DNA from: Chiloscyllium plagiosum
Lineage: Eukaryota
Length of the DNA: 31,791 nt
Direction of reading: 5' to 3'
Assembly (NCBI RefSeq): GCF_004010195.1
Contig: NC_057718.1
Coordinates: forward strand, 74,560,330 to 74,592,120
Part shown: positions 8,871-31,791 of the stretch, piece after piece
Position numbering within the stretch: the stretch's first letter is position 1
Layout: every line of letters starts with the position of its first letter
Translations under genes and position numbers: made by a program
Notes under the pieces: generated by a model
Told to the model about the DNA's origin: nothing
Databases searched by the model: none
Seen by the model: the letters and a program-made list of their open reading frames with translations, nothing else

Positions 8871-9129
8871 CCACACTTGTAATTTTTAGAACATAGAAAC
8901 TTACAGGGCAGTACAGGCCCTTCAGCCCTTGATGTTACGCCGACCTGTCATACTAATCTGAAGCCCATCTAACACACTATTTCATGTACATCCATATGAT
9001 TGTCCAATGACGACTTAAATGTACTTAAAAGTTGGCAAATCTACTACTGTTGCAGGCAAAGCATTCCATACCCTTACTACTCTCTGAGTAAAGAAACTAG
9101 TTCTGACATCTATCCTATATCTATCACCC

Positions 9130-9340
9130 AGAAGGAGAAAATGAGGACTGCAGATGCTGAAGATCAGAGCTGAAAATGTGTTGCTGGAAAAGCGCAGCAG
9201 GTCAGGCAGCATCCAAGGAACAGGAGAATCGACGTTTCGGGCATAAGCCTGAAGAAGGGCTTATGCCCGAAACGTCGATTCTCCTGTTCCTTGGATGCTG
9301 CCTGACCTGCTGCGCTTTTCCAGCAACACATTTTCAGCTC
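9130..9340. mobile_element. Palindromic Penelope-like pseudo-LTR insertion with 15-bp TSD
   Basis: CTATATCTATCACCC at 9115-9129 and 9340-9354. Perfect inverted arms 9166-9249 / 9258-9341, loop TGAAGAAG. Homologous to 25076-25163 and 25863-25957. Confidence 0.85.
9249..9276 (+). ncRNA. Minimal hammerhead ribozyme-like core (PLE type)
   Basis: CUGAAGA-A-GGGC(UUAU)GCCC-GAAA-CG-UC matches CUGANGA/stem II/GAAA/UH. The 5' strand of stem I is not evident in this copy. Confidence 0.6.
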
Positions 9341-9440
9341 TATATCTATCACCCCTCAATTTAAAGCTATGACCACTCGTGCTCGCCGTCACCATATTTG
9401 GAAAAAAGCTCTCCCTGTCCACTCTCTGGTTATCTTATAT

Positions 9441-9748
9441 TTAGATTAGATTCCCTACAGTGCAGAAACAGGCCCTTCGGCCCAACCAGTCCACACTGAC
9501 CCTCCGAAGAGTAACGCACCCAGACACATTTCCTTCTGACTAATGTACCTCACACTATGGGCAATTTAGCATGGATAATTCACCTGACTTGCACATCTTT
9601 GGACTGTAGGAGGAAACCGGAGCACTTGGAGGAAACCCACGCAGACACAGGGAGAATGTGCAAACATCACAGAGATGGTCGCCCAAGGCTAGAATCGAAC
9701 CTGGGACCGTAGTGCTGTGAGGCAGTAGTGCTAACCACTGAGCCACCA
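9441..9748 (-). mobile_element. V-SINE (HE1-like)
   Basis: TTAGATTAGATTCCCTACAG tail, V-domain, tRNA head. Confidence 0.92.
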
Positions 9749-9764
9749 AATGATCCTGCTGCCC

Positions 9765-9823
9765 CCAAATGATCCTTCGGTTCTGCATTGCTAGCCTGCT
9801 GACATTACCATTGCACCATTGCC
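9765..9823 (-). mobile_element. Fragment of a different tRNA-like SINE head
   Basis: Minus strand GGCAATGGTGCAATGGTAATGTCAGCAGGCTAGCAATGCAGA, with A-box-like TGGTGCAATGG. Confidence 0.45.
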
Positions 9824-9826
9824 TTC

Positions 9827-10046
9827 TGTATAATTCTGGTCTCTTTGCTATTAGAAGGATATTATGAAACATGAAAGGGATCAGTAAAGATTTACAAGGA
9901 TTTTGCCAGGATTTAGATTAGCTCCCCTACAGTTTCTGCACTGTAGGGAATCTAATCTAAATCCTGGCAAAATCCTTGTAAATCTTTACTGATCCCTTTC
10001 ATGTTTCATAATATCCTTCTAATAGCAAAGAGACTAGAATTACACA
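9827..10046. repeat. Long fold-back inverted repeat (107-bp arms, 6-nt loop)
   Basis: Arms 9827-9933 and 9940-10046, 4 mismatches by manual alignment, loop TTCTGC. Confidence 0.92.
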
Positions 10047-10690
10047 CAGTATTCCATAAGTGGCCCAACTAATGTACTCTACAGCCACAACCCCTTTACT
10101 CAGTGCACTGACCAATAAAAGCATGCATACCAAATGATGCTTTCCCTATCCTATCTACCTGCGACTCCACTTTCAAGGCACAATGAACCTGCACTCATAG
10201 GTCTCTTTGTTCAGCAATACTCCCTAGGACCTTACTATTAGCGTATAAGTCCTGCCCTGAATAGCCTTTCCAAAGGCTAACCTCACATTTATCTAAATAA
10301 AACTCCATCTACCACTCCTCAGATCGTTGGCTGCATTCTGAGGAAACCCTCTTCACTATCCTCTACATCTCCAATATTGGTGTGATCTGCAAACTTACTA
10401 ACTATACCTCCTATGTTCACATCCAAATCGTTTATATAAATGACAAAAAGCAGTGGACCCAGCACCAAGCCTTGTGGCACTCCACTGGTCACAGGCCTCC
10501 AGTCTTGTATCACTAAAGTCAGCCATAGTTTGAAAAAAATGAGGCTTGGCCAATGGTGTTGAGGCAGCTCAAGAATGCGATGAAAAGTGATCCTCCACCA
10601 CCCCTTCTGTCTTCTACCTTTGAGCCAGTTCTGTATCCAAATAGCTAGTTGTCTCTGTATTCCATGTGATCTAACTTTGCTAACCAGTCT
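9961..10690 (-). mobile_element. More decayed internal CR1 RT fragment
   Basis: DWRPVTSGVPQGLVLGPLLFVIYINDLDVNIGGIVSKFADHT; homologous to ~12812-13495. Confidence 0.88.
10503..10582 (+). repeat. 80-bp direct copy of 8429-8508 inserted in CR1
   Basis: 75/80 identity by manual alignment; interrupts CR1 CAGGCCTCCAGTCT|GAAAAG. Confidence 0.92.
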
Positions 10691-11494
10691 ATTAAGTACC
10701 TCTCAACCTTCTTCTCTCTAATGAAAACAGCCTCAAGCCCCTCAGCCTTTCCTTGTAAGACCTTCCCTCTATACCAGGCAACATCCTAGTAAATCTCCTC
10801 TGCACCCTTTCCAAAGCTTTCACATCCTTCTTATAATGTGGTGACCAGAACTGTACACAATACTCCAAGTGTGGCTGCACCAGAGCGTTGTACAGCTGCA
10901 GCATAACCTCATGGTTCCGGAACTCGATCCCTCTATTAATAAAAGCTAAAACACTGTATGCCTTCTGAATAACCCTGTCAACCTGGGTGGGAACTTTCAA
11001 GGATCTGTGTACATGGACACCGAGATCTCTCTGCTCATCTACACTACCAAGAATCTTACCATTAGCCCAGTACTTTGCATTCCATTTACTCCGACCAAAG
11101 TGAATCACCTCACACTTGTCCGCATTAAACTCCATTTGCCACCTCTCAGCCCAGCTCTGCAGCTTATCTATGTCTCTCTGTAACCTACAACATGCTTCGT
11201 CACTATCCACAAATCCATCGACCTTAGTGTCGTCTGCAAATTTTGCAGCTTAGAGGAGTCCATGGACCATGTATATATTACATCGTAATTTGTCATAGAC
11301 TCTATTTTGTTTCCTAAAGCAGATATGTCTGATTGCAGTTCAGACCCATGCTCCTGATTTTTGGCACTCAGCATGCAATATTGCAGACAGTTTAATGGAC
11401 CTCATCAGGCTTAGCCAAGGTTGACATGAACAGGTCCATGCAGAGGGCTGTTTGGCCTGACAGCCTGGTTCCAGAGGGTCAATCATTGCTTCTT

Positions 11495-12230
11495 AAAAAA
11501 TGATTGCCATTGTCTCTCCTCAGCCTAGATTACAAAGTTATTCTCAGAAAAATGTCTTCCCACCTTGTCACCACATGATACCATTTGATCCACCCCGACT
11601 AGTCCAATACATCCTGGGCCAAGCCATTTATAATAACATTCATCCATCTATCCCAGAGGAATGGTTCTCCATTGGCTGCAATCCTTTCCCTTGATCATGA
11701 GATGTTTGATAGTGTGGATCACAAATACTTATTTGGAACTCTGCGAATGTTTAGTTTCAAAATGCAGTTTGCTGCCTAAATCTACATCTGTACACTGCTG
11801 ATGTGTTGTGTGGTTACAAAACTTCAATTATGACATGTAGCTCCTATTCATGGACATATAAAATCTCAATTATGACATGCAGATCTGGTTTTCATAACTC
11901 TTTACAAGAGTGGTCTGTCTTATCTGGAACAGATCAAGATTTGGAATATGGTCACCTCAGAGCATGCTATTCAGGAATCCAATATGGTTTTGTTAGCCAG
12001 TAGAGGAAAGATGTTGGACTGCTGGTGTGACAAGGCTTGAGCACTTATATAGTGAGACAACTGAAACTTACAGTGGGTTTCCATGAGAACTGACACAGAT
12101 TTGGGTGAAACTTTACATTGGTCCTAATTCCTGACACCTCTCTTGAGGATTCAAAACTCCATATTTTGAGCCAGTTAGGAAATTATTCCCATTCCCAGAG
12201 CTTAATACAACTGTCAGTGAGCAATCAAAT
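11495..12230 (+). mobile_element. Second decayed Tx1 (L1-clade) ORF2 fragment
   Basis: KK*LPLSLLSLDYKVILRKMSSHL (RPISLL-DYKI motif); ILGQAIYNNIH; FDSVDHKYLFGTLRMFSF (KAFDRV motif); IKIWNMVTS. 12115-12195 is homologous to 8545-8628. Confidence 0.72.
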
Positions 12231-12560
12231 CACTCCAGAGAAGTGGCTGAAAATAGTAAATGTTAGATTGAAACTCCAACATTTAGAGTTATTTAATTTG
12301 AGAATATAACAAGGGATGGCCATCCTTCAAGTGTTGGGAAAATTGACAGCTGCACCTAACATTAATTGTTAGACGTAAATGCCTTTTTATCTACTTGTTG
12401 GATCCAAAGTAACTGGCAGAGCAACCTGTCACAGCCTTTCATGGGTTAATTTAGGGATGCACACTGGCAAAATACTGGGAGGCCTAGTTTGGGAAATGTG
12501 CCTGCAGTGGTAGCAAATGATCCTTAATTCATCTCTCAAAGTTGTTCGGTAGGACTTATA

Positions 12561-15250
12561 GCAGTCATTCCATTCACGCACCACCCTCTGCGTGAAAAAG
12601 TTGCTCCTTAGGTCCCTTTTATATCCTTCCCCTCTCACCCTAAACTTATGCCCTCTAGTTCTGGACTCCACCACCTCAGACCTTGTCTATTTATCGTATT
12701 TATACCCCTCATGATTTCATAAACCTCTATAAGGTCACTCCTCACCCTCCAACACTCCATGGAAAACAACCCCAGCCTATTCAGCCTCTCCCTATAGCTC
12801 AAACTCTCCAACCCTGGCAACATCCTTGTAAGTCTTTTCTGAACCCTTGTAAGTTTCACAACATCCTTCCAATAAGAAGGAGACCAGAATTGCACACAGC
12901 ATTCCAATAGTGGCCTAACCAATGTCCTGTATAGCCGCAACATTACCTCTCAACTCCTATACTCAATGTTCTGACCAATAAAGGAAAGCATTCCAAATGC
13001 CTTCTTCAGTATCCAATCTACCTGCGACTCTACTTTCAAGGAACTAAGAACCTACACTCCAAGGTCTCTTAGTTCAGCAACACTCTCCAGGACCTTACCA
13101 TTGAGTGTATAAGTCCTGCTCTGATTTGCTTTTTCAAAATGCAGTATCTCACATTTTTAAATTAAATTCCATCTGCCACTCCTCAGCCCATTGGCCCATC
13201 TGGTGAAGATTCTGTTGCACTCTGATGTAACATTCATCACTGTCCACTACACTTCCAATTTTGGTATCATCTGCAAACTTATTAACTATACCTCTTATGC
13301 TCACTTCCAAATCATTTATATAAATGATGAAAAGTTGTGGACCCAGCACCGATTCTGTGGCACACCACTGGTCACAGGCCTCCAATCTGAAAAGCAAACC
13401 TCCATCACCACCCTCTGTCTTTTACATTCGAGTCCGTTCTGTATCCAAATGGCTAGTTCTCCATGTATTCCATGAGATCTAACCTTGCTAACCAGCCTCC
13501 CATGAGGAACCTTGTCAAACACCTTACTGAAGTCCATTTAGATCACATCCACTGTTCTGCCCTCAATCCTCTTTGTTACTTTTTCAAAAAATTCAATCAA
13601 GTTCGTGAGACATGATTTCCCATGCACAAAGCCATGCTGACTATCCCCAATCAGTCCTTGCCTGTCCAAATAGTTGGATATCCTGTCCCTCAGGATTCCC
13701 TCGAATAATTGGCCCACCACTGATGTCAGGCTCACCGGTCTATAGTTCCCTGGCTTTTAATTACCACCTTTCTTAAACAGTAGCACCACGTTAGCTAACC
13801 TTCAGTCTCCTGGCACCTCACCTGCGACTATCGATGATACAAATATCTCAGCAAAGGGCCCAGCAATCACTTCCCTAGCTTTCCACAGAGTTCTGGGGTA
13901 TATCTGATCACGTCCTAGGGACTTATCAACTTTTATACATTTCAAGAGATCCAGCACCTCCTGCTCTGAACTATGAACATTTTTCAAGATGTCACCATCT
14001 ATTTTCCCCACATTCTATATCTTCCATGTTTAGTGTCTCCCACATCTCCTGTAACTCCACGTTGCTGATCTTTGAGGGGTCCTATTTTCTTCCTAGTTAC
14101 CCTTTTGTCCTTAACATATTTATAAAAACCCGTTGGGTTCTCCTTAGCCCGATTTGCCAAAGCTTTCTCATGTCTCCTTTTTGCCCTCCTAATTTCCCTC
14201 TTAAGTATATTCCTCCTGCCTTTATAATCTTCTTATAATCTCTCCTGTTTATACCTGACATATGCTTCCTTCTTTTTCTTAACAAAACCTCAATTTCTTT
14301 TGTCATCCAGCATTCCCTACACTTACCAGCCTTTCCTTTCGCCCTAACAGGAATATACTGTCTATGGACTCTCGTTATCTCAATTTAGAAGACTTCCCAT
14401 TTTCCAGCCGTCCCTTTATCTGCCTCCAATCAGTTTTTGAAAGTTCTTGCCTAATACTGTCAAAATTAGCCTTCCTCCAATTTAGAACTTCAACTTTTAG
14501 ATCCGGTCTATAATTTTCCATCATTATTTTAAAACAAATAGAATTATGAGTGCTGGCCCAAAAACGCTCCCCCACTGACACCTCAGTAACCTGCACTGCC
14601 TTATTTTCCAAGAGTAGGCAAGTTTTACACCTTCTGTAGTAGGTACATCCACATACTGAATCAGAAAATTGTCTTGTACGCACTTAAGAAATTCCTCTCC
14701 ATCTGAACCTTTAACACTATGGCAGTCCCAGTCTTTGTTTGGAAAGTTAAAATCCCCGACCATAACCACCCTGTTATTCTTACAGATAACTGAAAGTTCC
14801 TTACAAATTTGCTTCTCAATTTCCCACTGACTGTGAGGGGGGTCTATAATATAATTCCAATAAGGTGATCATCCCTTTCTTATTTCTCAGTTCCATCCGA
14901 ATAACCTTCTTCGATGTAACCCAGGAATATCCTCCCTAAGTATATGATTAATGCTATCCCATATCAAAAATGCCACTCCTCCTCCTCTCTTGCCCCCCTT
15001 TCTATCCTTCCTATAGCATTCCTGGAACATTAAGCTACCAGTTCTGTCCATGCCTGAGCCACGTTTCTGTAATTGCTATGATATCCCAGTCCCATGTTCC
15101 TAACCATGCCCTGAGTCCATCTGCCTTCCCTGTTAGGTCTCTTGCATTGAAGTAAATGCAGTTTAATTCATCAGTCCTACCTTGTTCTCTGCTTTGTTCC
15201 TGCCTGCTCTGACTGTTTGACTCATTCCCTTTCCCAACTGTACCAGTCTC
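12561..15250 (-). mobile_element. Near-full-length decayed CR1 ORF2 (APE endonuclease + RT), 3' tail missing
   Basis: CIYFNARDLTGKADGLRAWLGTWDWDIIAITETWL; VGDFNFP; QHGFVHGKSCLTNLIEFF; DFSKVFDKVPH; KFADDTK; FFTQRVVREWN. Confidence 0.95.
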
Positions 15251-15299
15251 CTGATGTGATTCTACAACTGGACAACACTTGAAAAACAATCCCCATTGT

Positions 15300-15705
15300 G
15301 TGAATACCTACACTAACAGTGACTTCAAGATTATTAATTAGGTTTACTATGTGGCTCACTTGTGCATGCTAGAAGCAATATATTTTCATAGCAGAGTCAT
15401 ATGCTTTGCAAACAGAAAGATCATGCCCAGGCATTTTCTCTCTTCAACCAAACAAAAGCTTGGGGGTCAACCATCCCTTTGTGTAGTCCCCATATCAATG
15501 TCTTAATCAATAAGAATTAATTTGCCTAGTTTGAATTTAAACAAAAGTTAGGTAGTTAACTATTTTCTGGGGCATTTTCCACAGAGATACTTCTAACTAT
15601 CAGAGTTCAGTTGCCAACAACAACTTTTCATGTTGTGGAAATTGCTATTCCCTTTGCAATTTTGTATTCTTATGATTATGTGCTGGTGAGTGCAAGACAA
15701 ATCAC
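15300..15705 (+). mobile_element. Decayed 3' end of a Penelope-like element (GIY-YIG C-terminus + terminal repeat), second family
   Basis: DFKIIN*VYYVAHLCMLEAIYF then, after a frameshift, LCKQK (like the L..LEA.YI...P.L..Q terminus). Degenerate hammerhead-like CTGGTGAGTGCAAGACAAA at 15683-15701. Confidence 0.6.
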
Positions 15706-15889
15706 AATTCTCAAGATCATTATTTATTTACCTTGGTCATTACTGGCAGTTGCTTCTGTGCTTCATACTTTGAGCATCAGAAAATAAGGCAAAGGCTTTT
15801 AATATTCTCAAGATTTTTAGTAATATTAATTGAAAAAAATTGACAACATTAATGAGCTAGTAACTAAATAAATGTTATTAAAACATTAC

Positions 15890-16128
15890 CAAAGGAGGAA
15901 AAGGAACGGTGCTGAGAGTTTCTTTACACTCCAATAGGCGTTAGGGTTGGAAATTCCTTACCAAAAACAGTGATAGAAACAAAATCCATAATAAGTTTGA
16001 GGAATGAGAATATCTGAGGAAGAAAACATTTAGAAAGCAGGGAATATGGTTAAATGTATTGTATTTTTACTAGGCAGGCTAAATTTCAAGAAGCACAATG
16101 ACCTCCTTCTGTATTACAAACTTCTAGG
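15890..16128 (+). mobile_element. Ancient CR1-like 3' remnant
   Basis: TTTCTTTACAC...GGAAATTCCTTACC...ATGACCTCCTTCTGTATTACAAACTTCTA resembles CR1 3' ends. Confidence 0.45.
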
Positions 16129-17063
16129 CTGTAGTTTTGATCTTGGGTTTTTCTATGAAACTGATGCATTCACTTGTTACACATCCTTCATGACTTTTGA
16201 AAATTGAGGGGATGTACAACAGCAAATAATCCAATATCACTTGATTTATACCATCTTTAAATGTCAAAATTGCCTCATATAACTCTGTTACCCCATAGTG
16301 AGATTATGATTGTAACACTTTAAGACATCACACCATAATTGGACCCAGGTGGATCTGTTCCACCTGTTCTGTGCTTCAGAATTTATAAAACAAAATATGT
16401 TTCCTATTTAACTCCTTCAAAAAAAAACATGGTGAAGAATAAAATGATCTACTTTATTAGCTTTATCTGTTTACTCAACCCAGCAGTGTGTTTTTGTTTG
16501 TTCCGTTTGTATTTGGGTTCTCGGAAAGATGTTCCCATGGGAGGAAGGTCTGTCTCATTAACTGAGGAGCTGTGAATTCACACGATGTTGCCATTGAAGC
16601 ATCCCCATTTGACCTATTGGTGCAGGCAGGTTAATTAATGAAACTGCTAAAAATGGTTAGACATGAGCAGTCCTTGAGGAACTCATGCAACAATGTTTAA
16701 AGGTTGAAATGACTCATCTGCATAAAACACAACTACATCCCTTGATTCCAATCTGCAGGAAGTCATCTCCTGATTGTCATTAGCCGAAATTTTACAAGAT
16801 CCATCATGATGCCATTCTCAATTAAATACTATCCTGATGTCAATCCTTTCATCTCTCTTCACCTTTGGAATTATTTTTTTTAATCCATGTTTAGGTCAAG
16901 GTTATAATGACATCTCAATCAAGTGATCCTAGAGAACCCCAAACAAAGAAATGGGAAGCAGGCGATTACAAATGCTACTTGATAGCACTATCTTTGACTT
17001 TCCAATCTACTGATTTAGCATAGTCAAATAGGGCATTAATTAGATAGACTGAATTTGTCCTAC

Positions 17064-19670
17064 TTGATTTGATTTGATCTGATTTGTTGTAGTCTTGTAA
17101 TTAAGTATGGTGAAACACATTGTTTGTGAGCCGCACAGGCACATCATAGTTAGCAAGGACATACAGATCATTGGGTGCTTAGACACAGTGAGGCATACAG
17201 GTTACAATGCACAGGAGATGCATGAAGCAAGATCAAAAGAAGCATTATTTAAAATTAGAGAGACATTCAAGCTGCTCTTGAACCTGTTGGTGTGTGTGTG
17301 TTCAGGCTTCTGTATCTTTTGCCTGATGGAAGATGTTATAGGAGTGCATTATTAGGCTGGAGGAGTCTTTGATGATGTTGACAGCCTTTCCACGGCAGCA
17401 AGAAGTGTAAATGGAGTCCCTGGATGGAAGGTTGGCTTCCATGATGACCTGGGCTGGGTACACAACTTCTGTAGCTTCTTATGGTCCTGGGCAGAGCAGT
17501 TACCATACTAGGTAACTGTGCATTATGCACCGGGATGGTATGCTTTTTATGGTGCACCTGTAAATGTTGGTGAGGATCCTTATGGAAATGCCAAATTTCC
17601 TAAGCTGCCTGAAGAAGAAGAGACATTGTTATGCTTTCTTGCCCGTCACATCTATGTGGAAAGTCCAGTACAGGTTGTAGGTTATCGCCACTCCTACGAG
17701 TATAATGCTCTTAACCTCCGCTCCTTTGCTGTAGATGGAGGTGTGTTCTCTCCGTTCTTTCTGAAGTCAATGATCAGTTCTTTTGTTTTGTCAACATTGA
17801 GAGGGAGGTTGTTACAACTGCACCATGACACATTGCCCTCTAACTCCTTTCTGTATTCTGATACATCATTCTTAGATAACTGTCCTATTAGAGTGGTGTC
17901 ATCAGCAAAAGGGTAGATCGTGTTCATTCAGAATTTGGGTGCACAGGGAGTACAGTAAGGAGCTGAGGGCTCCAGTGGGTTATTGTGGAGGATGTGCAGT
18001 TGTCTGTCTTCATTCATTGAGGTCTGTGGGTCAGGAAGCTGAGGAATTCAATTGCAGAGGGTGGAGCCGAGACCTAGGTCTCAGAGTTTTGAGATCTGTC
18101 TGGAGGGGATTAGAGTGTTGAAGGTGGAGCTGTAGTCGATGAATAGGACTCTGATGTCGATGTCCTTGTTGTCCAGATGTTCTAGGGATGACTGCAGGGC
18201 TAGGTAAATTTTGTCAATTATGGACATGTTATGTTAGTAGGCAAATTGCAGGGGATCAAAGAAGGCTGGGAGGCTTGAGTTGAGTTGGGCCATAATCAGC
18301 TTCTCAAAGCACTTCATCACTATGGAGGTCAGAGCCATTTGGAGGTAGTCATTGAGGCATGTTGCATGTGTCTTCTTTGGTATTGGGATGATGGTGGTCT
18401 TCTTGAAGCAAGTAGGGATGTTGGCTTGTAGGACGGAGACTTGAAGATGTCAGTGAATATCTCCACCAGCTGGTCTACACATGATCTAAGTGCAGAGCTG
18501 GGAAATCCATCCCGGTCCATAGCTTTCCTTGGGTTGACTCTCAGGAAGATTGATCTGACATCTGCAGGGATGGCAGCGGGAACAGGTGTGTCTGAGAATG
18601 TTGGGGCAGATGACACTGCTCCGCTGGCTTTCACTTAAACCGAGCATAGAAAGCACTGCGTGCATCAGAGAGGCATGTGCTTTTGTCCGTCGTCTTGCTC
18701 TGCTTCATTTTGTATCCTGTTATGTTGTTTAGGCTGTACTGAGGAAGCTAAAATACCACAGAGGGGTCAGTTCCATGCCTTACTTCTCTTTGAGGACACA
18801 TTGTGGTTAAACATTCCACTACCAAAGGACTTACTGCAGTGTCAACTGAAAGCCTGTACTCTTACAATACAGACAGAACATCTCAGTGTGTGTGTGTGTG
18901 TGGTGGAGGGGGGTGGGGGGCTGACTGTATCTCAGAAATGGAGCCTAATGGAGCCTCACATGTGGATTCCCCTGTAGCCTCTGAAAGAAGTATTTGCGCT
19001 TCCCAGACAAGACTGATTGCCTTGGCCACAACCCTGTTAAACTGCCTCCTACTCCCATTATTTTACTTCCCCTCCATATTAGCATAGGTGCGTGAATTCC
19101 CCATTGAGAACAGACAAAACGCTTCTGTTTTAATCTCTTCCCATCAACACATGATCATGAAGGATATATTCACAAGTTATCACAGGACATCGACATTCAT
19201 TGGGTTTTGTAAATTCATAATTACCTATCTTAAATTATGTAATGACAATCGACCATGATAAACCTTTTATTTAATCCCTATAAAAATATTGTCTTTGTGT
19301 GTAGGGCAGAGATTCGTGGAGAAGTGTCATCACAAGTTGACACACGGCTACTTTGGGGACATTTTGAATATCTCACCGGCTGTCTAACAATGAAGTATCT
19401 ACCATTGTACAGAAACATGTCGTCCGGATACATCAGCAGTACCACAGGCAGCAGATGTCTATATGGTTGGTCTGAGCCTCTAACTTGATTCAGTGATGCT
19501 TCTTAGCATCTCTGATGGCTTTGCAAAGGTCATATCTGGATTTTCTGCATAGGTCTGGGTTGTACGAATTGAATGCTGCATGCCAGATTTACTGGTTCAT
19601 CCAAGGTTTCCAGTTCGGGAACACCCTGATTAACTTCTTTGGCATGCAGTCCTCCATGCATTTGCTCATG
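17064..19670 (-). mobile_element. Rex1/Babar-clade LINE (17064-18734 + ~19445-19670)
   Basis: FADDTTLIGQLSKNDVSEYRKELEGNVSWCSCNNLPLNVDKTKELIIDFRK; LRVNPRKAMDRDG...LRSCVDQL; RVFPNWKPWMNQ; (GATTT)n tail at 17064-17085. Confidence 0.88.
18735..19444 (+). mobile_element. Probable solo LTR inserted in the Rex element
   Basis: 710-bp insert in collinear Rex ORF. Begins TGTACTG, ends CAGTACCA; TATAAAAA at 19279; AATGAA (degenerate polyA signal?) at ~19389. TSD ambiguous. Confidence 0.55.
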
Positions 19671-19671
19671 A

Positions 19672-20215
19672 GTCAAGGATGACTCAGTTGGTAACACTCA
19701 TATTTCAGAGTCAGAAGATTGCATATTCAGGACCCATATGAACATAAAATTCAAAGACAGACATTCCATTTCTATACTGAGGGAATACTTCATCATCAGA
19801 GGTGATAAATAATAAATCACAGCTCAAACTGACGTCTCAAGTGGGCACAAAAGATCCCATGTCACCGTTTTGAAGAAGAGCAGGAGAGATACCATATATA
19901 AAAGAAAAACATTACAGATGCTGGAAATATGAAACAGACTCTGTAGGTCTGGTAGCATCTCTGGATGAGGAAACAGAATTAATGTTTCAGCTCTGTGACT
20001 TTCATCCTCATAGTTGTTTTCAGTTTCCTGAACAATACTTATTCCTCAATCCACATCACAAACATTGATTATGTAGTCATTAAAAAATGTGTTGTTATGG
20101 GACTTGCTGTTGCAAATGCTAAGTTTCCTACAGGACAACAGTTTTTAAAAAAATACTTTATTGGCTGTAAGGCACTTATGGACATCCCGTGGTTGTTAAA
20201 GCTGCTAAAAAGGCC
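19672..20215 (+). mobile_element. Deu-domain SINE (SacSINE1/AmnSINE-like)
   Basis: tRNA-like head TGACTCAGTTGGTAACACTC; AAAAGATCCCATGTCACCGTTTTGAAGAAGAGCAGG Deu core; L2-like tail TACTTTATTGGCTGTAAGGCAC. Confidence 0.75.
19900..20006 (-). mobile_element. Old PLE pseudo-LTR fragment inside the Deu-SINE
   Basis: CAGATGCTGGAAAT...AGGTCTGGTAGCATC resembles 9150-9212. The minus strand starts GATGAAAGTCACAGAGCTGAAACATT. Confidence 0.55.
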
Positions 20216-20684
20216 AGTTTTTCAATGTTTCATGGGCAGAATATATTGCAACAGTTTCCATGTTGACTGGTGGATGCCAGTGTCATAGCTGTACTGGAAT
20301 AACTTTGCTGAAAGTGCAGCCAATTCTGAAGTGCTACAGTGAGGATACTTTTGGAGTTCATAGATTTTGTTGTATCAAAGTTGCTCAGATATTTCTTAAT
20401 AACACATAGAGTATATTGAATTGGCTGATGACATTAACCTGTGTTTCAGTAAAAGGATGAAATGGGTCATCATTTGGCATTTGTTGGCTGACGCTGGTTG
20501 CAAACAATACAGCCTTGCGTTTTGCACCTGTGTTGGGTTATGCCATGATTGAAGATGTGGATATTCATTGAGCTTCCTTCTCACATTAGTTGCTAATTGC
20601 TCATCAATGAGCAAAAATCAGCAAAGCTATTGGTGATGGTATTACTTTTCTCTGTTCAGAACATGTTGCATCCGCTGTTCACCA

Positions 20685-21752
20685 AAACAAAATGCATTTT
20701 CAGAATGCTGTGACATCTCAAGTACTCTATAATTAATGAAACATAGTTAATTGCACTCACTGTTGGAGTGTAGGAAGCACAGCACCCAATTTACACACAG
20801 CAATCTTATATAATCAATCGTGATGAACGACAGTACCCTGGAAAGCAGCAAGGATCATAGCAATCTTGGTGTGCATGCATATCAGTCTCTTAAGTTTTCA
20901 GAACAGGTGCACAAAGTGGTTAAGAAGGCAAATAGAATACTTGCCTTTATTAGCCAAGGCACAGAATTTAAGAGTAGGGAGATTATAATGAAAGTGTAGA
21001 CCATTACATGAGTGTTGTGTGCAGTTCTGGGATCCAAATTAAAGGAGGGACGTGATTACAGTGGAGAGGGTGCAGAGGAAATTTGCCAGGATGCTGTCCA
21101 GGCTGAAAAGTTTCAGTTATGAATAAAAATTGGACAGACTGGGGTTGTTTTCCTTTCAGCAGAGGAGTTAGAGAGTGGAAATGATTGAGATTCATAAAAT
21201 TGCAAGGAGCATGGATAGGGTGAACAGGATTAAACTTTTTTTCTTGATGGAGGGATCTGTGATATGTGACATAGATTTAAGGTAAGGGACAGAAGATTCA
21301 CAGGAGATGTAAGGAAAAATGTCTTCACCCAGAGGATGGTTAGTACAGGCTAAACCTTCATGACATTTAAGAAGTATTTAAATGTGCACTTGCGAAACCA
21401 AGTCATACAAAGCTATGGGACAATGCTGGGAAACAGGATTCGAATAGGTAGGTGTTTGTTTTGCTGATAATGATAGTTCACAGATTATGGAGTAAATATT
21501 AATGAGGACACTGGGCATAACTCTCCTGCTTTTCCCCAAAAATAAAATTTAGAGGCATTTTTATATCCACCTGAAACAACACCTAAGTTTAAGTTCTCAT
21601 CCAAAAGACAGCACTTTGATGGTGCAACATTCCCTCAGTACTGCACTGCAATGTCAACATCATTTTTCTGTGTCCATTTCCTGGAGTGGGACTTGAACTT
21701 ACAAATTTTTGATTCAGTGGCAACGATTGCTATTAACTAAGTTATCGCTGAC
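20685..21752 (-). mobile_element. Deu-domain SINE split by a CR1
   Basis: CATCCAAAAGACAGCAC...CCCTCAGTACTGCACTG, B-box-like GGGACTTGAAC, AACTCTCCTGCT; tail portion at 20685-20834. Confidence 0.75.
20835..21462 (+). mobile_element. 5'-truncated CR1
   Basis: GTGGTTAAGAAGGCAAATAGAATACTTGCCTTTATTAG...TGTGTGCAGTTCTGG...TTCACCCAGAGG, CR1 C-terminal motifs. Confidence 0.85.
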
Positions 21753-21904
21753 AGTAGGTTTGAATGTAGTCATATGTTGCAGCTTCACCAGGGTGCTGCC
21801 TCTTTTCATTTATATCTGGTCCTGCTCTTGCCTACCACTTCTACATTCCTTATTTAACCAGTGTTGGTGCATTGTTTGACAGTAATGATAGAGCAAGGAT
21901 GACA

Positions 21905-22475
21905 TTTAAAAAAAAAATAATTTAATGGATGTAAATTTCACTGCTCGGGCCAGTGTGTATTGCCCATTCCTAGTTACTCTTGAGAAGGCGGTAGTGAGTT
22001 CACTTCTTGAACTGCTGCAGTCCATTTGGTGTAGGATCCCCCTATAGTGCATTTAGAGAGAGAGTTCCAAGATTTTGACCCAGCAAAACTGAATGAACAG
22101 CGATTGAATTCCAAGTAACATAATGACTTGCTTGGAGGGAATCTTGCAGGTGGTAGTGTTCCCATGTATTTATTGTGCTTAGCCTTCTAGAAGGCAGTGA
22201 TCATGAGTTCGGGAGTTGTTGTCTAAGGTGCTATCTAAGGAGACTTGGTGAATTTCTGCAATACTTCCTGTATATAGTACATGTTACTGCTGCTGTCTAT
22301 CAGTGGTGGAGAGAGTGAATGTTTGAGCATGTGCAGCCAATCAAGGGGACTGCTTTATCTGGATAGTGCAGGTTTCCGGGATGTTTTTGGAGTTGCACTT
22401 GTCCAGGTAAGTCGCGAATATTTTGTCATACTCCTGACTTGTGCTGTGTAGATTGTGGACAGGCTTTGGGAGTCC
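21905..22475 (-). mobile_element. 3' portion of L2/CR1-group LINE
   Basis: SFSFAGSKSWNSL C-terminal motif; homologous to 6195-6430. Confidence 0.75.
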
Positions 22476-22477
22476 TA

Positions 22478-22690
22478 GAGATCTATAGTATAGATAACTG
22501 CATTTTGGCCCATTGAGTCTGTGCCAGTCACAATCACATAAAAAATATAATCCCATTTTCCAGCACTTGGCCCATAGCCTTGCATACTCTACCATTGCAA
22601 GAATATATCTAAATAATTCTTTAAATGCTATGATGGTTTCTGCCTCTCCCACCCTTATAGGCAGTGAGTTCCAGACTCCAATCACCCTGG
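22478..22690 (-). mobile_element. CR1 3' fragment
   Basis: RVIGVWNSLPIRVGEAETIIAFK plus 3' UTR. Confidence 0.8.
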
Positions 22691-22724
22691 TGGTGGTTGA
22701 CAGTGCAGGAGTGGGAATCCTGCT

Positions 22725-23325
22725 CTTGTTTGTTACCGAAATGCAATACCTCGCATTTATCCAAATTAAATTCCATCTACCATTCCTCAGCCCATTCACC
22801 CAATTGATCAATATCTCTTTGTAATCTTGGATAACCTTCTTCACTGTCCACTATAGGATCAATTTTGGTCTTATCTGCAAAGTTACTAATGGTGCCTCCT
22901 ATATTCTCATCCAAATCATTTATATAAATGCTAAATAACAGAGGACTCAGCACCAATTAATGCGGAACACTGCTGGTCACAGGCCTCCAGTCCAAAAAAC
23001 AACTCTCCACCACCACTCTCTGTCTCCTACTGTAAAGCCAATTTTGTATCCAATTGGCAAATTTACCCTGAATCCTATTTGATCTAACTTTACAAATTAT
23101 TCTACCATGCAGAACCTTATCAAAGGCTTTACTAAAGTCCAAATAAACAACACTAACGTTCTGCCCTCATCAATATTTTTGATTACATCCTCAAAAAGTT
23201 TGTCATAAATGATTTCCCTCACACAAAACCATGCTGACTATCCCTAATCACTCTTTGCCTCTCCAAATGCATGTAAATCCTATCTTTCAGAATCATCTCC
23301 AATAACATACCCACCACCGATATGT
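22725..23325 (-). mobile_element. Internal CR1 RT fragment
   Basis: MDFSKAFDKVLHGR...DWRPVTSSVP; RDSQHGFV. Confidence 0.88.
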
Positions 23326-23389
23326 CGAGGCTGCGACAACCGCCACATTCTGTATCGTTTGCGAGTTTGCAACTTTCATGTAATCCATG

Positions 23390-24525
23390 TGCTTGTAAAC
23401 TGTGATATCTAATAGTTTTCCCAATACCATGTTTCCTAGTGATTTTGATTGTTTTAAGTTTCTCTGTCCCTTTTACCACATTTTCTGTGTCTTCTACAGT
23501 GAGGAATGATGCAAAATTCTTGTTCATGGTTTTGCCATTTTCTTGTTTCCCATCATTAATTTTTCATTCTCCCCATCTAAGGGACAAACAAACCATCACT
23601 TTAGTTATTCCTCTTTCTTTTTAAATACTTGCAGAAATTCTTACTTTGTTATGTTTCTAACTAGCTTTCTCTCATACTTTAATTTCAATTTTTTTTGGTA
23701 ATTACTAATTTCTAAAATCTGCTCAAGCTTCAGTCTGACCATTAATCTTCACAGTACTGTCTTTTTTTTAATCAATTTGATGCTTTCTTTAATTCCTTAA
23801 GATAGCCACAGACTTTGTGTAATATTCTTGTATACCATCGAGAAGAAAAACATGAATATCTTAGCTAAGTTATTAAATAAGTCTACCACTATTTCTCTAA
23901 TGCACTACATTTTATTCTATTTTCCCAATTCAAGATAGCCAATGCTGAAATCATAACCTTATAATTACATTTATTTTGGTTTATAAACATTTGTCCCATC
24001 CTCAATCTACATAAGAATGTAGTTATGATTATTGATATTCCTTTCCTATATATTTATGAATTAATCCTGTCTTATTGCACATTACCAGGTATAAAATAGC
24101 CTGTTTTCTGGCAATTGAATGTACTGCTCTAAAAAACTGTCCCTGCACCACGATACTATCACTAAATTGTCCATCCACTTTGCAGCCCCTGCTTTTGTAT
24201 TTACCAGTTACAAGAATCTTGAATCTATTGAACATTTGCAAAGACTGAAACTTTTTCATTTGTATATTCTTGATCCCCATACCTGCCTCACTTATAGATG
24301 CACACTCCAGTCACTGACCTGGATAAAATCGTTAGCTTGAGGGGTGTGCCAGACTTCTGGAACAAAGCGTAACATTACTCCTTGATGAATCACCTCAGTG
24401 TCTGAAGCCCGGCCTCCAGCTCATTAACTCTGAGCCAGTGCTCCTCAAACCAAAACACTTACTTCAGGCATGGCCAATGTGGATCACACCACCTTACATC
24501 AGTCCCATGTACTATAGGCATACTA
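23390..24525 (-). mobile_element. Old CR1 remnants (ORF2 linker/endonuclease, then ORF1 N-terminus)
   Basis: NKNFASFLTVEDT; QAILYLVMCNKTGLI; 24280-24525 resembles the CR1 ORF1 Cys/coiled-coil region. Confidence 0.55.
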
Positions 24526-25075
24526 AATTATCTACCCTTCCATTATTATTACATTTTAATTTATTTATTAACTATTTTCTTAATTAAATTTTAGTTAATA
24601 CCTCCAGTCTGGCTTGTGTTCATCTTCCGAATGTTAATATTCCACTTAAATTGACATTCCCGAGTTTAGATATGAAAGATAACCAAAAACGCTCATAAGT
24701 CCATAATTTACCTTTTTGCCTGTTATTTCAATTTTCTTTTGAATGAACCCACAGATCCATACCCTAGCTTTTCATACTCTCTAGACTACCCACTGGGATG
24801 CAACTTGTCTACCCAACGCTGAAAATAAAGGTAGAAGAAGGAACCTTTTCTTGTCTCTGCACCAAATTCCCATGAGAATTCCAGATGCAATTACCTTTCC
24901 ACGCATCCTCTTAACCTCGGCATCAGATTTTCAAGCTTGTCTGGCCTATTTATCCAGGCCTCAAGACTAGTGGTTCAGTAACATAAACACAGCACTAAGG
25001 TGCCCTGAGAGTGAGGGCTGGTTTATCATTAGAAATGACAGCCTGACATCATAGCCAATTATATTATATAGTAGT

Positions 25076-25163
25076 GAAGAAGGGCTCATGCCCAAAACGT
25101 CAATTCTCCTGCTCCTTGGATGCTGCCTGACCTGCTGCTCTTTTTCAGCAACACATTTTCAGC
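25076..25163 (+). mobile_element. 88-bp PLE pseudo-LTR mini-insertion with 14-bp TSD
   Basis: TATTATATAGTAGT at 25062-25075 and 25164-25177; insert homologous to 9251-9339. Confidence 0.88.
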
Positions 25164-25194
25164 TATTATATAGTAGTACCTATTATATGCATAG

Positions 25195-26150
25195 AAAGAG
25201 GGAAGGGGCAGAATTCTGGGAATTTGGAAGACTAATAAGTAGGGCTCCTAAAATAGTAATCTCTGGATTGCTCCAATGTCACCTACTAATGAGTATAAGA
25301 AATGGAGGATAAAACTGATGAATGTGTGAAGATATGTTTCAGAAGGGAAGGCATTAGAGTCCTTGGGCACTGGGACCAGTTCTGGCAGAGGTGGAATGTA
25401 AAGAGATCGGATATGTTGCACTTCAAAAGAGCTGGGATCAAGGTGTGAGGTGGATTGTTCCTGCTGTTTGGAGGATTTAAACTAACTTGGCAAGAAGATA
25501 GAAATCACTACGTATTGTTAGAAACTTCACAAACAGTCCAGGAAGATAGATAGCCTGAGAAAAGGAAATAGTAAATTATTAATGACAATAAAATTAAGGG
25601 GAAGCCCCATAAGATCCACACCAACTTTACAGTTAATTTATGTTATTGCATGAAGTGAAGTAGGTAAGGGCGGTGAGTGGAAACCTGGCTCAGAAAAGGG
25701 ATTAGAATTGTGTAATAATTATAGCTGGGGTACAAAGTGTTCAGGAAAAGATGGAGAAGGAAAGGAAGGAAGTATGAAAAATATTCAAATAGTAGAGAGA
25801 ATGGATATCCTGGACAGTTCAAGGGTAGAATTTGGTTAGAGTTAAGATACAGAGGTAAAAGGTTCCTGATGAAGGGCTTTTGCCCGAAATGCGATTTTTC
25901 TGCTCCTTGGATGCTGCCTGACCTGCTGTGTTTTTTCAGCACCACTCTAATTCAGACTTAAGATACAGAGGACCAAATTTGCAATGAGGTTATGGCCAGG
26001 TAATTATTCTGTCTTATCAGGAATAATAATAGTGAAAAGGACAGAAAGGGTGGAGAGTTGTTGGAGAGTGTTCAGGAATTATTTCTGTATTACTTTATTT
26101 CCGACTGAATAAGGAATGAAGTACTGTGAAATCTAGTCAGGGAGAAAGAA
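25195..26150 (+). mobile_element. Old CR1 ORF1 (SGNH esterase-like) and endonuclease remnants
   Basis: SRAPKIVISGLL; REGIRVLGHWDQFWQRWNVKRSDMLHF (DGLHL-like); downstream ETWL. Confidence 0.65.
25856..25957 (+). mobile_element. 102-bp PLE pseudo-LTR mini-insertion with 14-bp TSD
   Basis: TTAAGATACAGAGG at 25842-25855 and 25958-25971; CTGATGAAGGGCTTTTGCCCGAAA at 25866. Confidence 0.88.
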
Positions 26151-30009: not shown

Positions 30010-30385
30010 GATGGCTCCCGGCCTGCTGCAGTGACCTCTTGTAGCGGCCTCCTGGCCTGGTGCAGTGGCCTCCCAATGTGGAGTGGTGATCTTCCAGCCT
30101 AGTGCAGCGGCCTCCCAAAGTGGCGTGGCAGCCTCTTGACTTGGTGCAGCTGCGTCACAAAGTGGCGTGGTGACTGCCCGGTGATCCTGCAGTGATCTCC
30201 CAGAGTGGCATGTCAACCTCTGACGTGGCGCAGCGGCCTCCTGGCGTAGTGTAGTGACCTTTTGACCTGGCGGAGTGGTCTTTTGACATGGCGACCTCTA
30301 GGCCTGGCACAGCTGCTTCATGGTATGGCAATGATGACCTCCTCCTGTAGGGACCTCCTGACATGGCATGGCAATACCCTGGTCT
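30010..30385. repeat. Degenerate GC-rich 21-bp minisatellite with a 42-bp dimer pattern
   Basis: Units GTAGCGGCCTCCTGGCCTGGT / GCAGTGGCCTCCCAATGTGGA / GTGGTGATCTTCCAGCCTAGT / GCAGCGGCCTCCCAAAGTGGC / GTGGCAGCCTCTTGACTTGGT. Confidence 0.85.
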
Positions 30386-30394
30386 GACGCAGCA

Positions 30395-31468
30395 CGTTCT
30401 CTTCCCTTCCTGAACATCTCTGTTGCTATTTCTGGGGCTAGACTGGCCACTAATATGCACTATAAACCCACCGGACTACCCATCTGGACTACACATCGTC
30501 GCAGCCTGCTTCCTGTAAAGACTCTATTTCATTCTCCCAGTTCCTCCGTCTCCGTCACGTATGTTCGGATAAGGCCTACTTCAACAAGGGAAAGTTCAAA
30601 ATAGAACAAAGAACAAAAAGCACAGAAACAGGTACTTCGGCCCTCTAAGCTTGCGCCAACACATTTTGCCCTTCCATATTAAAACTGTCTTCATATACAG
30701 GATCCTTATCCCTCTATCCCCTTCCTATTCATTTATTCGTTCAGGTGCTCTTAAATACTGCAATTGTGATGTCCACCTTCTTCTTCAACTGAGGATTTCC
30801 CAGCACCATTGTTGACAGGGCCTTTAACCAGGTCTGACCCATCTCCCGCAGTTCCACACTCACCCTCTCTTCACTCCTGCAACAGTGATGGGGTTCCCCT
30901 TGTCCTTATCTACAATCCCATCAGCATCCACATCTAGAAGATCATCAATCACCATTTCCGCCACCTCCAGTGAGATGCCACGACCAGACACATATTCCCC
31001 TTCCCTCCCTTATCTATCTTCCGCAAGGACGGTTCCCTCTGGGACACCTTGGTCCATTCTTCCTTCACTCCCAATGTCCCCCCACAGCGCTTTCCTTTTC
31101 AACTACTTAAGGTATAACTCCTGCCCATTTACCTCATCCCACCCGAGTATCCAAGGCCCGAAACATATCTTCCAGGTGAAGCAGCAGTTCATACAATTTG
31201 ATCTACTGCATTCGCTGCTCAAAGTGTGGTCTCCTCTACATTATGAAAATGAAGCGTAGATTGGGTGATTGCTTTGCAGGACCTCTAGGTTTTGCCCACA
31301 AAAAAGACCCTGAACTTCCAGTTGCCTGCTACTTTTAAAACACCACCCTGTTCCCTGGCCAACATTCCTGTCTCAGGCTTGTATTGTTCCAGTGAAGCTC
31401 AGCGCAAGCTGGAAGAACACTACCTCATTTTCCGTTTGAGGAACCTTCAGCCCTCTGGACTCAATATC
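30395..31468 (+). mobile_element. Decayed Penelope-like element (RT thumb + GIY-YIG endonuclease)
   Basis: SLPFLNISVAISGARLATNMHYKPT; SCKDSISFSQFLRLR; NLIYCIRCSKCGLLYI; RKLEEHYLIFRLRNLQPSGLNI. Confidence 0.9.
30600..30768 (-). mobile_element. Short CR1 3' fragment nested in the PLE
   Basis: ATAGAACAAAGAACAA tail; ATCCCTCTATCCCCTTCCTATTCAT; the PLE is collinear across it. Confidence 0.8.
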
Positions 31469-31791
31469 AATGCAGCCCTCCACTCCCTCCGTTGCAACCC
31501 CAACCTCACTATCAAACCTGCAGACAAGGGAGGCGCGGTAGTAGTTTGGCGCACCGACCTTTACACCGCTGAGGCTAAACGCCAGCTCACGGACACCTCC
31601 TCTTACTGCCCACTTGACCATGACCCCACCTCCCACCACCAAACCATCATCTCCCAGACCATCCATAACCTCATTACCTCAGGGGATCTCCCATCCACCG
31701 CCTCCAACCTCATTGTCCCACAACCCCGCACCGCCCGTTTCTACCTCCTGCCCAAAATCCACAAACCTGACTGCCCCGGCCGACCCATTGT
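31469..31791 (+). CDS. Partial, intact-frame Penelope-like reverse transcriptase (N-terminal RT), running off the window
   Basis: NAALHSLRCNPNLTIKPADKGGAVVVW...ARFYLLPKIHKPDCPGRPI with no stops; DKG and LPKIHK-RPI are PLE RT motifs. Confidence 0.88.

Follow-up and report, generated by a model that had tools for sequence, protein, structure and literature searches.

The stretch of DNA analysed here (the window) comprises 31,791 nucleotides (nt) of the genome of the shark Chiloscyllium plagiosum (contig NC_057718.1, positions 74,560,330 to 74,592,120). It carries three short insertions between positions 9115 and 25971, which share a unit with a hammerhead ribozyme core. The inserts are most likely stubs of the terminal repeats (pseudo-long terminal repeats, pLTRs) of a Penelope-like element (PLE) and belong to two subfamilies. 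Their features are as follows, with the parts named according to this most likely assignment.

9115 to 9129: left target-site duplication (TSD) of insert 1, 15 bp
9130 to 9165, minus strand: tail of about 36 nt, on the antisense arm only; the tail letters are also seen in reads as loose ends 3' of the unit
9166 to 9249, minus strand: antisense pLTR arm, 5'-truncated within hammerhead stem II (84 nt, 100%)
9248 to 9339, plus strand: sense pLTR stub without the tail
9249 to 9276, plus strand: intact minimal hammerhead core (CUGANGA, 4-bp stem II, GAAAC-GUC), with the predicted cut after 9276
9340 to 9354: right TSD of insert 1
25062 to 25075: left TSD of insert 2, 14 bp
25076 to 25163, plus strand: solo pLTR stub without the tail, subfamily of insert 1; C3 absent, G12>A
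25164 to 25177: right TSD of insert 2
25842 to 25855: left TSD of insert 3, 14 bp
25856 to 25957, plus strand: solo pLTR stub of the second subfamily; stem III and cut site decayed
25958 to 25971: right TSD of insert 3

Structure of the three insertions

All three inserts were flanked by exact direct repeats, of 15 bp for insert 1 (9115-9129 and 9340-9354) and 14 bp for insert 2 (25062-25075 and 25164-25177) and insert 3 (25842-25855 and 25958-25971). As a control for chance, 3,000 random intervals of the window were examined. Two of them gave repeats of 14 bp, both of which were the real duplications, and all others gave 11 bp or less. This result bears out the earlier note on this DNA, made from the sequence alone, which had described three separate insertions with duplications of their own. 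A blastn search confined the common unit to the three insertion places within the window, where neither a tandem array of the unit nor an upstream pLTR piece elsewhere was found.

The unit of about 90 nt that the note had assigned to all three inserts is present in each of them, but not as a single type. Copies 1 and 2 were 93% identical over 90 nt. For copy 3, which ends at a 3' position of its own, the identity was 84-87% over about 80 nt, thereby indicating two subfamilies. Insert 1 (9130-9339) is a 210-bp head-to-head pair, whose arms (9166-9249 and 9258-9341) match over 84 bp at 100% and overlap by 2 nt at the join (9248-9249). Its antisense arm extends about 36 nt past the sense arm as the tail, which gives the insert two 3' ends, and the native 5' strand of stem I has been replaced by the other arm. 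This longer arm contradicts the claim that all units end at about the same point. The proposed start of the sense units at or just before CUGANGA holds as a clustering of 5' ends, placed some 28 nt upstream of the GUC site at which the ribozyme would cut, but not to the letter. Copy 2 begins 1-2 nt inside the core (U4/G5), and copy 3 has 7 bases foreign to the family (25856-25862) before its unit starts at 25863, 3 nt before C3.

A second fold-back lies at 9827-10046, with 107-nt arms that are 96% complementary and 6 nt apart. It resembles long or short interspersed nuclear elements (LINE/SINE) and lacks the hammerhead unit.

The hammerhead core was intact in copy 1 and decayed in copies 2 and 3, as the note had said of both 25-kb copies. 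Copy 2 has lost C3 and carries G12>A at 25094, and the cut site of copy 3 is decayed; in both copies most reads carry the intact letters (at 25094, G in 588/841). The stem II loops TTAT, TCAT and TTTT surrounded by GGGC/GCCC were found as described. However, the loop variation in three copies is no evidence of covariation, because most reads carry T at 25087 (468/671). In the window copies, part or all of the native 5' strand of stem I is gone, and in the shark read consensus stem I forms 3/4 pairs. The folds of the units were not unusually stable compared with shuffled sequences (z of -0.09, -0.54, and -0.19). A search of the window with Rfam, as the note had suggested, gave no hammerhead at E ≤ 1, and a search of five outside loci linked by open reading frame (ORF) or family gave none at E ≤ 5, the sole matches being hairpin microRNA models below threshold; minimal hammerheads are outside the reach of the Rfam models. 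Translations of the unit matched none of 120 PLE proteins.

In insert 1, an inverted 5'-truncated pLTR stands beside a direct one, with a tail on one side and a TSD, which are the features of insertions by endonuclease-containing (EN+) PLEs. The core of copy 1 has the minimal type I form with stem II. The head-to-head arms, the tail, the TSDs and this intact core support the PLE origin with a minimal type I hammerhead that the note had proposed. Its view of a little-described system is not sustained, as the structure of solo pLTR, inverted arm, tail and TSD has already been published. As PLE remains, the inserts are of an ordinary kind that has been described before, and the three window copies are likely dead.

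Hammerhead units in shark reads and in other animals

Four sequencing runs were mapped to positions 25000-26050, which hold inserts 2 and 3 only. In run X1, 58,302 contigs mapped, nearly all onto the two units, and the unit family is clearly very large; summed depth on the units is no copy number, and the contigs over-count unique junctions, so that they show the clustering of junctions and not the share of short copies. Run X22 gave 0 reads on this region. Upstream of the unit, the loose-end consensus of the DNA contigs (500 in X1 and 534 in X13; organisms A and B) was readable for about 9 letters and then passed into AT-rich noise (agreement 0.38). The RNA data came from a poly(A) single-cell library, in which the agreement upstream of the unit was 0.53 (311 reads), and reads over the 3' end of copy 2 mostly continued into the tail of about 36 nt (agreement 0.8 over 30 letters, 331 reads). 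The units drew 2,345 of 12.96 million RNA records, in both orientations (about 1.9:1 over copy 2). Because all 2,345 align only partly to the stretch, no read shows that the loci of inserts 2 and 3 are themselves transcribed.

Contigs of organism B span from unique flank into insert 2 and from flank into the start of insert 3 (its 5' junction), thereby indicating that both inserts predate the split from organism B. An empty target site was not seen for either insert, both being common to organism B. Joints of the unit 3' end to a unit start were present in about 53 contigs among the X1 matches listed, against 7,373 partly aligned contigs (<1%), and 134 further joint matches lie beyond those listed.

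Cores of the same type were collected from other animals. A core-pattern scan of metagenome contigs gave 27 loci, all from families of other animals and none from sharks; the pattern required the GGGC/GCCC stem, and its invariance there was therefore not counted. An alignment search with PLE proteins in prokaryote genome records gave 13 loci. The genomes behind five of these (G001-G005) held 103 relaxed-core matches, 71 of them in G001, and 60 further regions were taken. After removal of 32 cores without a 3-bp stem II, the 112 distinct cores left 80 in 35 families. Pattern scans of viral contigs and genome contigs at the DNA level, and a protein scan of viral contigs, gave no match. The animal-like DNA in the records G001-G005 looks like host contamination. 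G001 held 155 PLE-protein matches beside its core matches, and G002 held 16 protein and 21 core matches. In G002, eight near-identical RT-like (reverse transcriptase) matches about 3.7 kb apart form a long tandem array (C203, 173-26316).

In 17/35 families, the core lies 18-941 nt downstream of a PLE ORF match, and cores with the same stem II as in the window sit downstream of PLE ORFs in L001, L018, and L022. The first pair of stem I was formed in 33/35 families (16 UA, 7 AU, 7 CG, 2 GC, and 1 UG), compared with 8-19 when the partner was slid. This covariation indicates that the hammerhead fold is real for this class.

The 5' ends were then counted for 52 cores in families with a long reference, omitting six cores in three families that lacked one and the single-member families. 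Twelve ends fell within 12 nt upstream of C3, one at 13-44 nt, 37 further upstream, and two at contig edges. By a hand estimate, a constant truncation rate would place about 20 cores in the 13-44 nt class, where one was observed. Stub-type ends were unevenly split between the metagenome set (8/17) and G001-G005 (4/35), and four of the 12 short-ended cores belong to diverged subfamilies, in which the end may partly reflect divergence. A tree of 13 sequences from one outside family placed stubs among long copies, with weak support.

Head-to-head inserts paired a tailed with a tail-less arm in all five cases with a usable reference (window insert 1, L006, L010, L016, and L021); L005 could not be called, and L015 has an inverted tail piece only. 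TSD candidates of 11-15 bp were found at L010, L012, L015, and L021, compared with 9 bp or less at 21 of the 23 other loci; L027 repeats L021, and L001 is an 11-bp low-complexity match. Three unrelated families (window insert 1; L026, L010, L018, and L016) have their tail-less 3' end at a distance of 89-101 nt from C3, and the tail varies from about 36 nt in window insert 1 to 55-60 nt in two outside families. In L014 (minus strand, 4001) and L117 (701), short pieces of the stem II region follow one another head to tail immediately upstream of the core, a pattern that repeated restarts of the RT could give.

Origin of the clustered 5' ends

Promoter motifs were sought upstream of the core in the 17 ORF-linked families, using the consensus patterns TATAWAW and initiator (Inr). 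With up to one mismatch, TATAWAW was found at -39 to -33 in 7/17 families (1.2 expected, P = 6e-5), and without mismatch in 1/17. In the 14 families taken after this interval had been fixed, the match was found in 5/14 (1.3 expected, P = 0.006). The Inr pattern YYANWYY with its A at -12 to -3 was found in 7/17 families (2.5 expected, P = 0.004); it is one of three patterns tried, and the other two were each found in 5/17 (P = 0.02 and 0.003). In family L002, the TATA box starts 31 nt before an A at -7, and stubs end at -2 to -8. The shark upstream consensus contains TCATTCC, an Inr match. The promoter signal is thus moderate and is missing in most families. An origin of the 5' ends at splice acceptors was considered and put aside; a YAG lies within 15 nt upstream in 5/17 families (a count made with no control) and is absent there in the shark consensus.

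On balance, we lean at slightly better than even weight toward the reading that the stubs begin at the hammerhead because the predicted start of the PLE RNA lies a few bases ahead of it, and that the RT/GIY-YIG enzyme of the PLE wrote them. From the observed inserts, tails, TSDs and clustered 5' ends, we infer the steps from transcription start to integration as follows. Transcription would start about 4-10 nt upstream of CUGANGA in the upstream pLTR, and the transcript would carry two copies of the RT start region, one close to its 5' end and the other at its 3' end. The enzyme would nick AT-rich DNA on both strands and, with the RNA uncleaved, begin copying at an internal position, for which there are two neighbouring sites separated by the length of the tail. 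This step has been reported in vitro for another PLE, from Anolis (PMC11167929). A start at the pLTR copy near the RNA 5' end would run off after 90-130 nt, and this complementary DNA (cDNA) would integrate as a stub; a start at the downstream copy would yield long 5'-truncated elements. If both nicks prime, a tailed and a tail-less cDNA could join by microhomology into a head-to-head insert, and a stagger of 14-15 nt between the nicks would give the TSD. The ribozyme in the stubs would be a passenger that neither cuts nor blocks the copying. The match of the architecture to published PLE inserts (PMC3846280, PMC8557442) counts in favour of this run-off reading. So do the ORF-linked cores with a covarying stem I, the short readable stretch of the shark consensus, the scarcity of 5' ends at 13-44 nt, the TATA-like and Inr matches, the pairing of tailed with tail-less arms and, weakly, the interleaving of stubs with long copies.

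Several observations weigh against it. The transcription start is a prediction, and the interval for the TATA test was chosen after the first 27 loci had been seen. In 10/17 families there is no TATA-like match, and TTTAAAA and similar AT runs make up several of the matches. In the shark, the consensus can be read out to about -8, past the Inr A at -4, so that the predicted start is only approximate, and the shark TATA position lies just past the 30 visible letters. By a crude mixture reading, about 30% of the RNA reads that cross the 5' edge share a single, longer sequence upstream of it. No pile-up of RNA molecule ends was found in the RNA run, whose library is poorly suited to it. No contig among the shark contigs seen joins the unit to a PLE ORF, and the low share of stubs in G001-G005 shows that the pattern is not universal. 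In addition, the layout differs in Penelope of D. virilis, which has a TATA-less internal promoter. Its start is 46 bp ahead of an intron of 75 bp (PMC2377424), and the end of this intron has been mapped to helix I (PMC4209133).

Among the alternatives, the one that survives best is a separate non-autonomous SINE-like family, which would have kept an internal promoter, been transcribed on its own from the same start and been copied in trans by the PLE enzyme. Such a family predicts identical 5' ends. Penelope does have an internal promoter (PMC2377424), non-autonomous PLEs exist (PMC8557442), and the unit family is both very abundant and present in poly(A) RNA. However, the stubs lack the upstream TATA-like element, and the RNA reads run in both orientations, as read-through would give. 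The two arms of insert 1 differ at both ends, as if built at insertion, and the mixing of stubs with long copies in the outside family tested also speaks, weakly, against a separate lineage. We therefore regard this explanation as unlikely, although it deserves more weight than those that follow.

The note had also offered a strong RT stop at the ribozyme fold. In this explanation the hammerhead, or a protein bound to it, makes the RT stall or change template while a long RNA is being copied, which yields stereotyped truncations. Ends and inversion junctions do lie at or within the motif (the antisense arm of insert 1 in stem II, copy 2 at U4/G5), and a PLE protein aids hammerhead folding in vitro (PMC11167929). 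Most ends, however, lie upstream of the whole motif, where the helices have already been copied, whereas a stop would be expected at or 3' of the helices. The units are also no more stable than their shuffles, and the TATA-like box at the expected distance is left unexplained. These results make a stall improbable.

Ordinary random 5' truncation, with the clustering an artefact of noticing only copies that hold the core, has in its favour that the window offers three inserts only, that all outside samples required an exact core, and that heavy 5' truncation is usual in PLEs (PMC8557442). Among core-holding copies, however, the ends pass from 12 in the first 12 nt to one in the next 32 nt and 37 beyond, and in the shark the consensus of the loose ends is lost about 9 nt upstream, which makes this explanation very improbable. 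Least probable of all is the non-LTR (long terminal repeat) retrozyme that the note had offered as one option, in which the hammerhead cuts tandem units that then form circles and integrate again: the hammerhead is of type I, retrozymes have been proposed as pLTR derivatives (bioRxiv 10.64898/2026.07.22.740005) and some contigs join unit end to unit start, but such joints are rare among the contigs listed, the window copies are dispersed with no tandem array, the units start well upstream of the cut site rather than being permuted around it, and they form no stable self-paired fold.

Neighbouring PLE sequence, related systems and implications

Two PLE ORF remnants lie at the end of the window.

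30365 to 31468, plus strand: older decayed PLE ORF remnant, from the RT thumb to the endonuclease end, interrupted (context only)
31469 to 31791, plus strand: younger 5'-truncated PLE ORF piece, 90% identical to P0003, running off the window end; candidate parent family

The older remnant is split near 30600-30780 by other repeat DNA of about 200 bp, and a decayed 42-bp tandem repeat (30021-30371) lies just upstream of it. The younger piece was 92% identical to a Chiloscyllium punctatum protein. It had been taken for the start of a full-length PLE; because it begins at residue 190/654 of P0003, directly after the endonuclease end of the older element, it is 5'-truncated. In 19/23 long protein relatives of this ORF, a CX2-5CxxC linker precedes the GIY-YIG domain, which may point to Neptune/Nematis rather than Poseidon.

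The inserts were compared with described systems; a review (PMC6765202) was among the background sources. EN+ PLE insertions have an inverted 5'-truncated pLTR, a one-sided tail of 30-40 bp, solo pLTRs and a TSD (Arkhipova et al. 2013, PMC3846280; Craig et al. 2021, PMC8557442). The window inserts share the head-to-head arms, the one-sided tail of about 36 nt, the TSD, the 5' truncation and the short overlap at the inversion. In contrast, insert 1 has no ORF between its arms, and the 5' ends cluster at the hammerhead edge. The TSDs of 14-15 bp in the window, and of 11-15 bp at four outside loci, are longer than the 8-10 bp of A. vaga PLEs.

Minimal type I hammerheads of metazoan pLTRs are mostly single dispersed motifs, which have been attributed to truncated PLEs (Cervera and De la Pena 2014, PMC4209133). 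The window units resemble them in CUGANGA with one extra base, in a stem II opened by G-C, in a palindromic GAAAC-GUC without helix III and in being dispersed single copies; they differ in a 4-bp stem II and a weak stem I. The available parts of that paper contain no mapping of 5' ends and name no sharks. The Poseidon element PAc of Anolis cuts and extends both strands at AT-rich targets, and ribozyme cleavage is not needed for its insertion (Frangieh et al. 2024, PMC11167929). The proposed likeness to PAc covers the pair of internal RT start sites, separated by the length of one tail, the cutting and extension of both strands, the AT-rich targets and an insertion that does not depend on ribozyme cleavage. 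Unlike the PAc ORF, which starts in stem II, the window frame opened by the loop ATG closes after 29 codons, and the relatives of the window ORF carry the CX2-5CxxC linker. Non-LTR retrozymes consist of tandem units of 150-300 bp that are processed at the cut site into circles (PMC7761336; bioRxiv 10.64898/2026.07.22.740005). The window inserts are likewise non-coding and PLE-related with a type I hammerhead, but they are dispersed, measure 88-210 bp and begin upstream of the core.

The minus-strand strong-stop DNA of retroviruses is a short cDNA, primed internally by a tRNA and extended as far as the 5' end of the RNA. The comparison with the stubs is an analogy only, since these would be primed at a DNA nick and integrated directly. 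An animal-wide form of the run-off reading would place the start of PLE transcripts at the 5' strand of hammerhead stem I, with a TATA box about 35 nt and an Inr a few bases upstream, and would take the dispersed solo minimal hammerheads of many animal genomes for directly integrated strong-stop cDNAs begun at the pLTR copy nearest the cap. This extension is tentative, and we place it somewhat below an even prospect. In the full-text literature searched, which included few subscription papers, no paper was found to state a clustering of PLE 5' ends at the edge of the hammerhead, or to describe such ends as strong-stop products. What is new here is the clustering of 5' ends in other animals, together with a modest promoter signal at the right distance.

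The run-off reading brings a step of the PLE cycle within reach of experiment. If it holds, a single rule would cover the thousands of lone minimal hammerheads scattered through animal genomes and would account for the pairing of tailed and tail-less arms in head-to-head inserts. It would also explain why PLEs need partial tandems to stay active, as the stubs would be without the upstream part of the promoter. Under the animal-wide form, genome sequence by itself would be enough to locate, from the ends of stubs, where transcription begins and where both RT starts lie in each PLE family.

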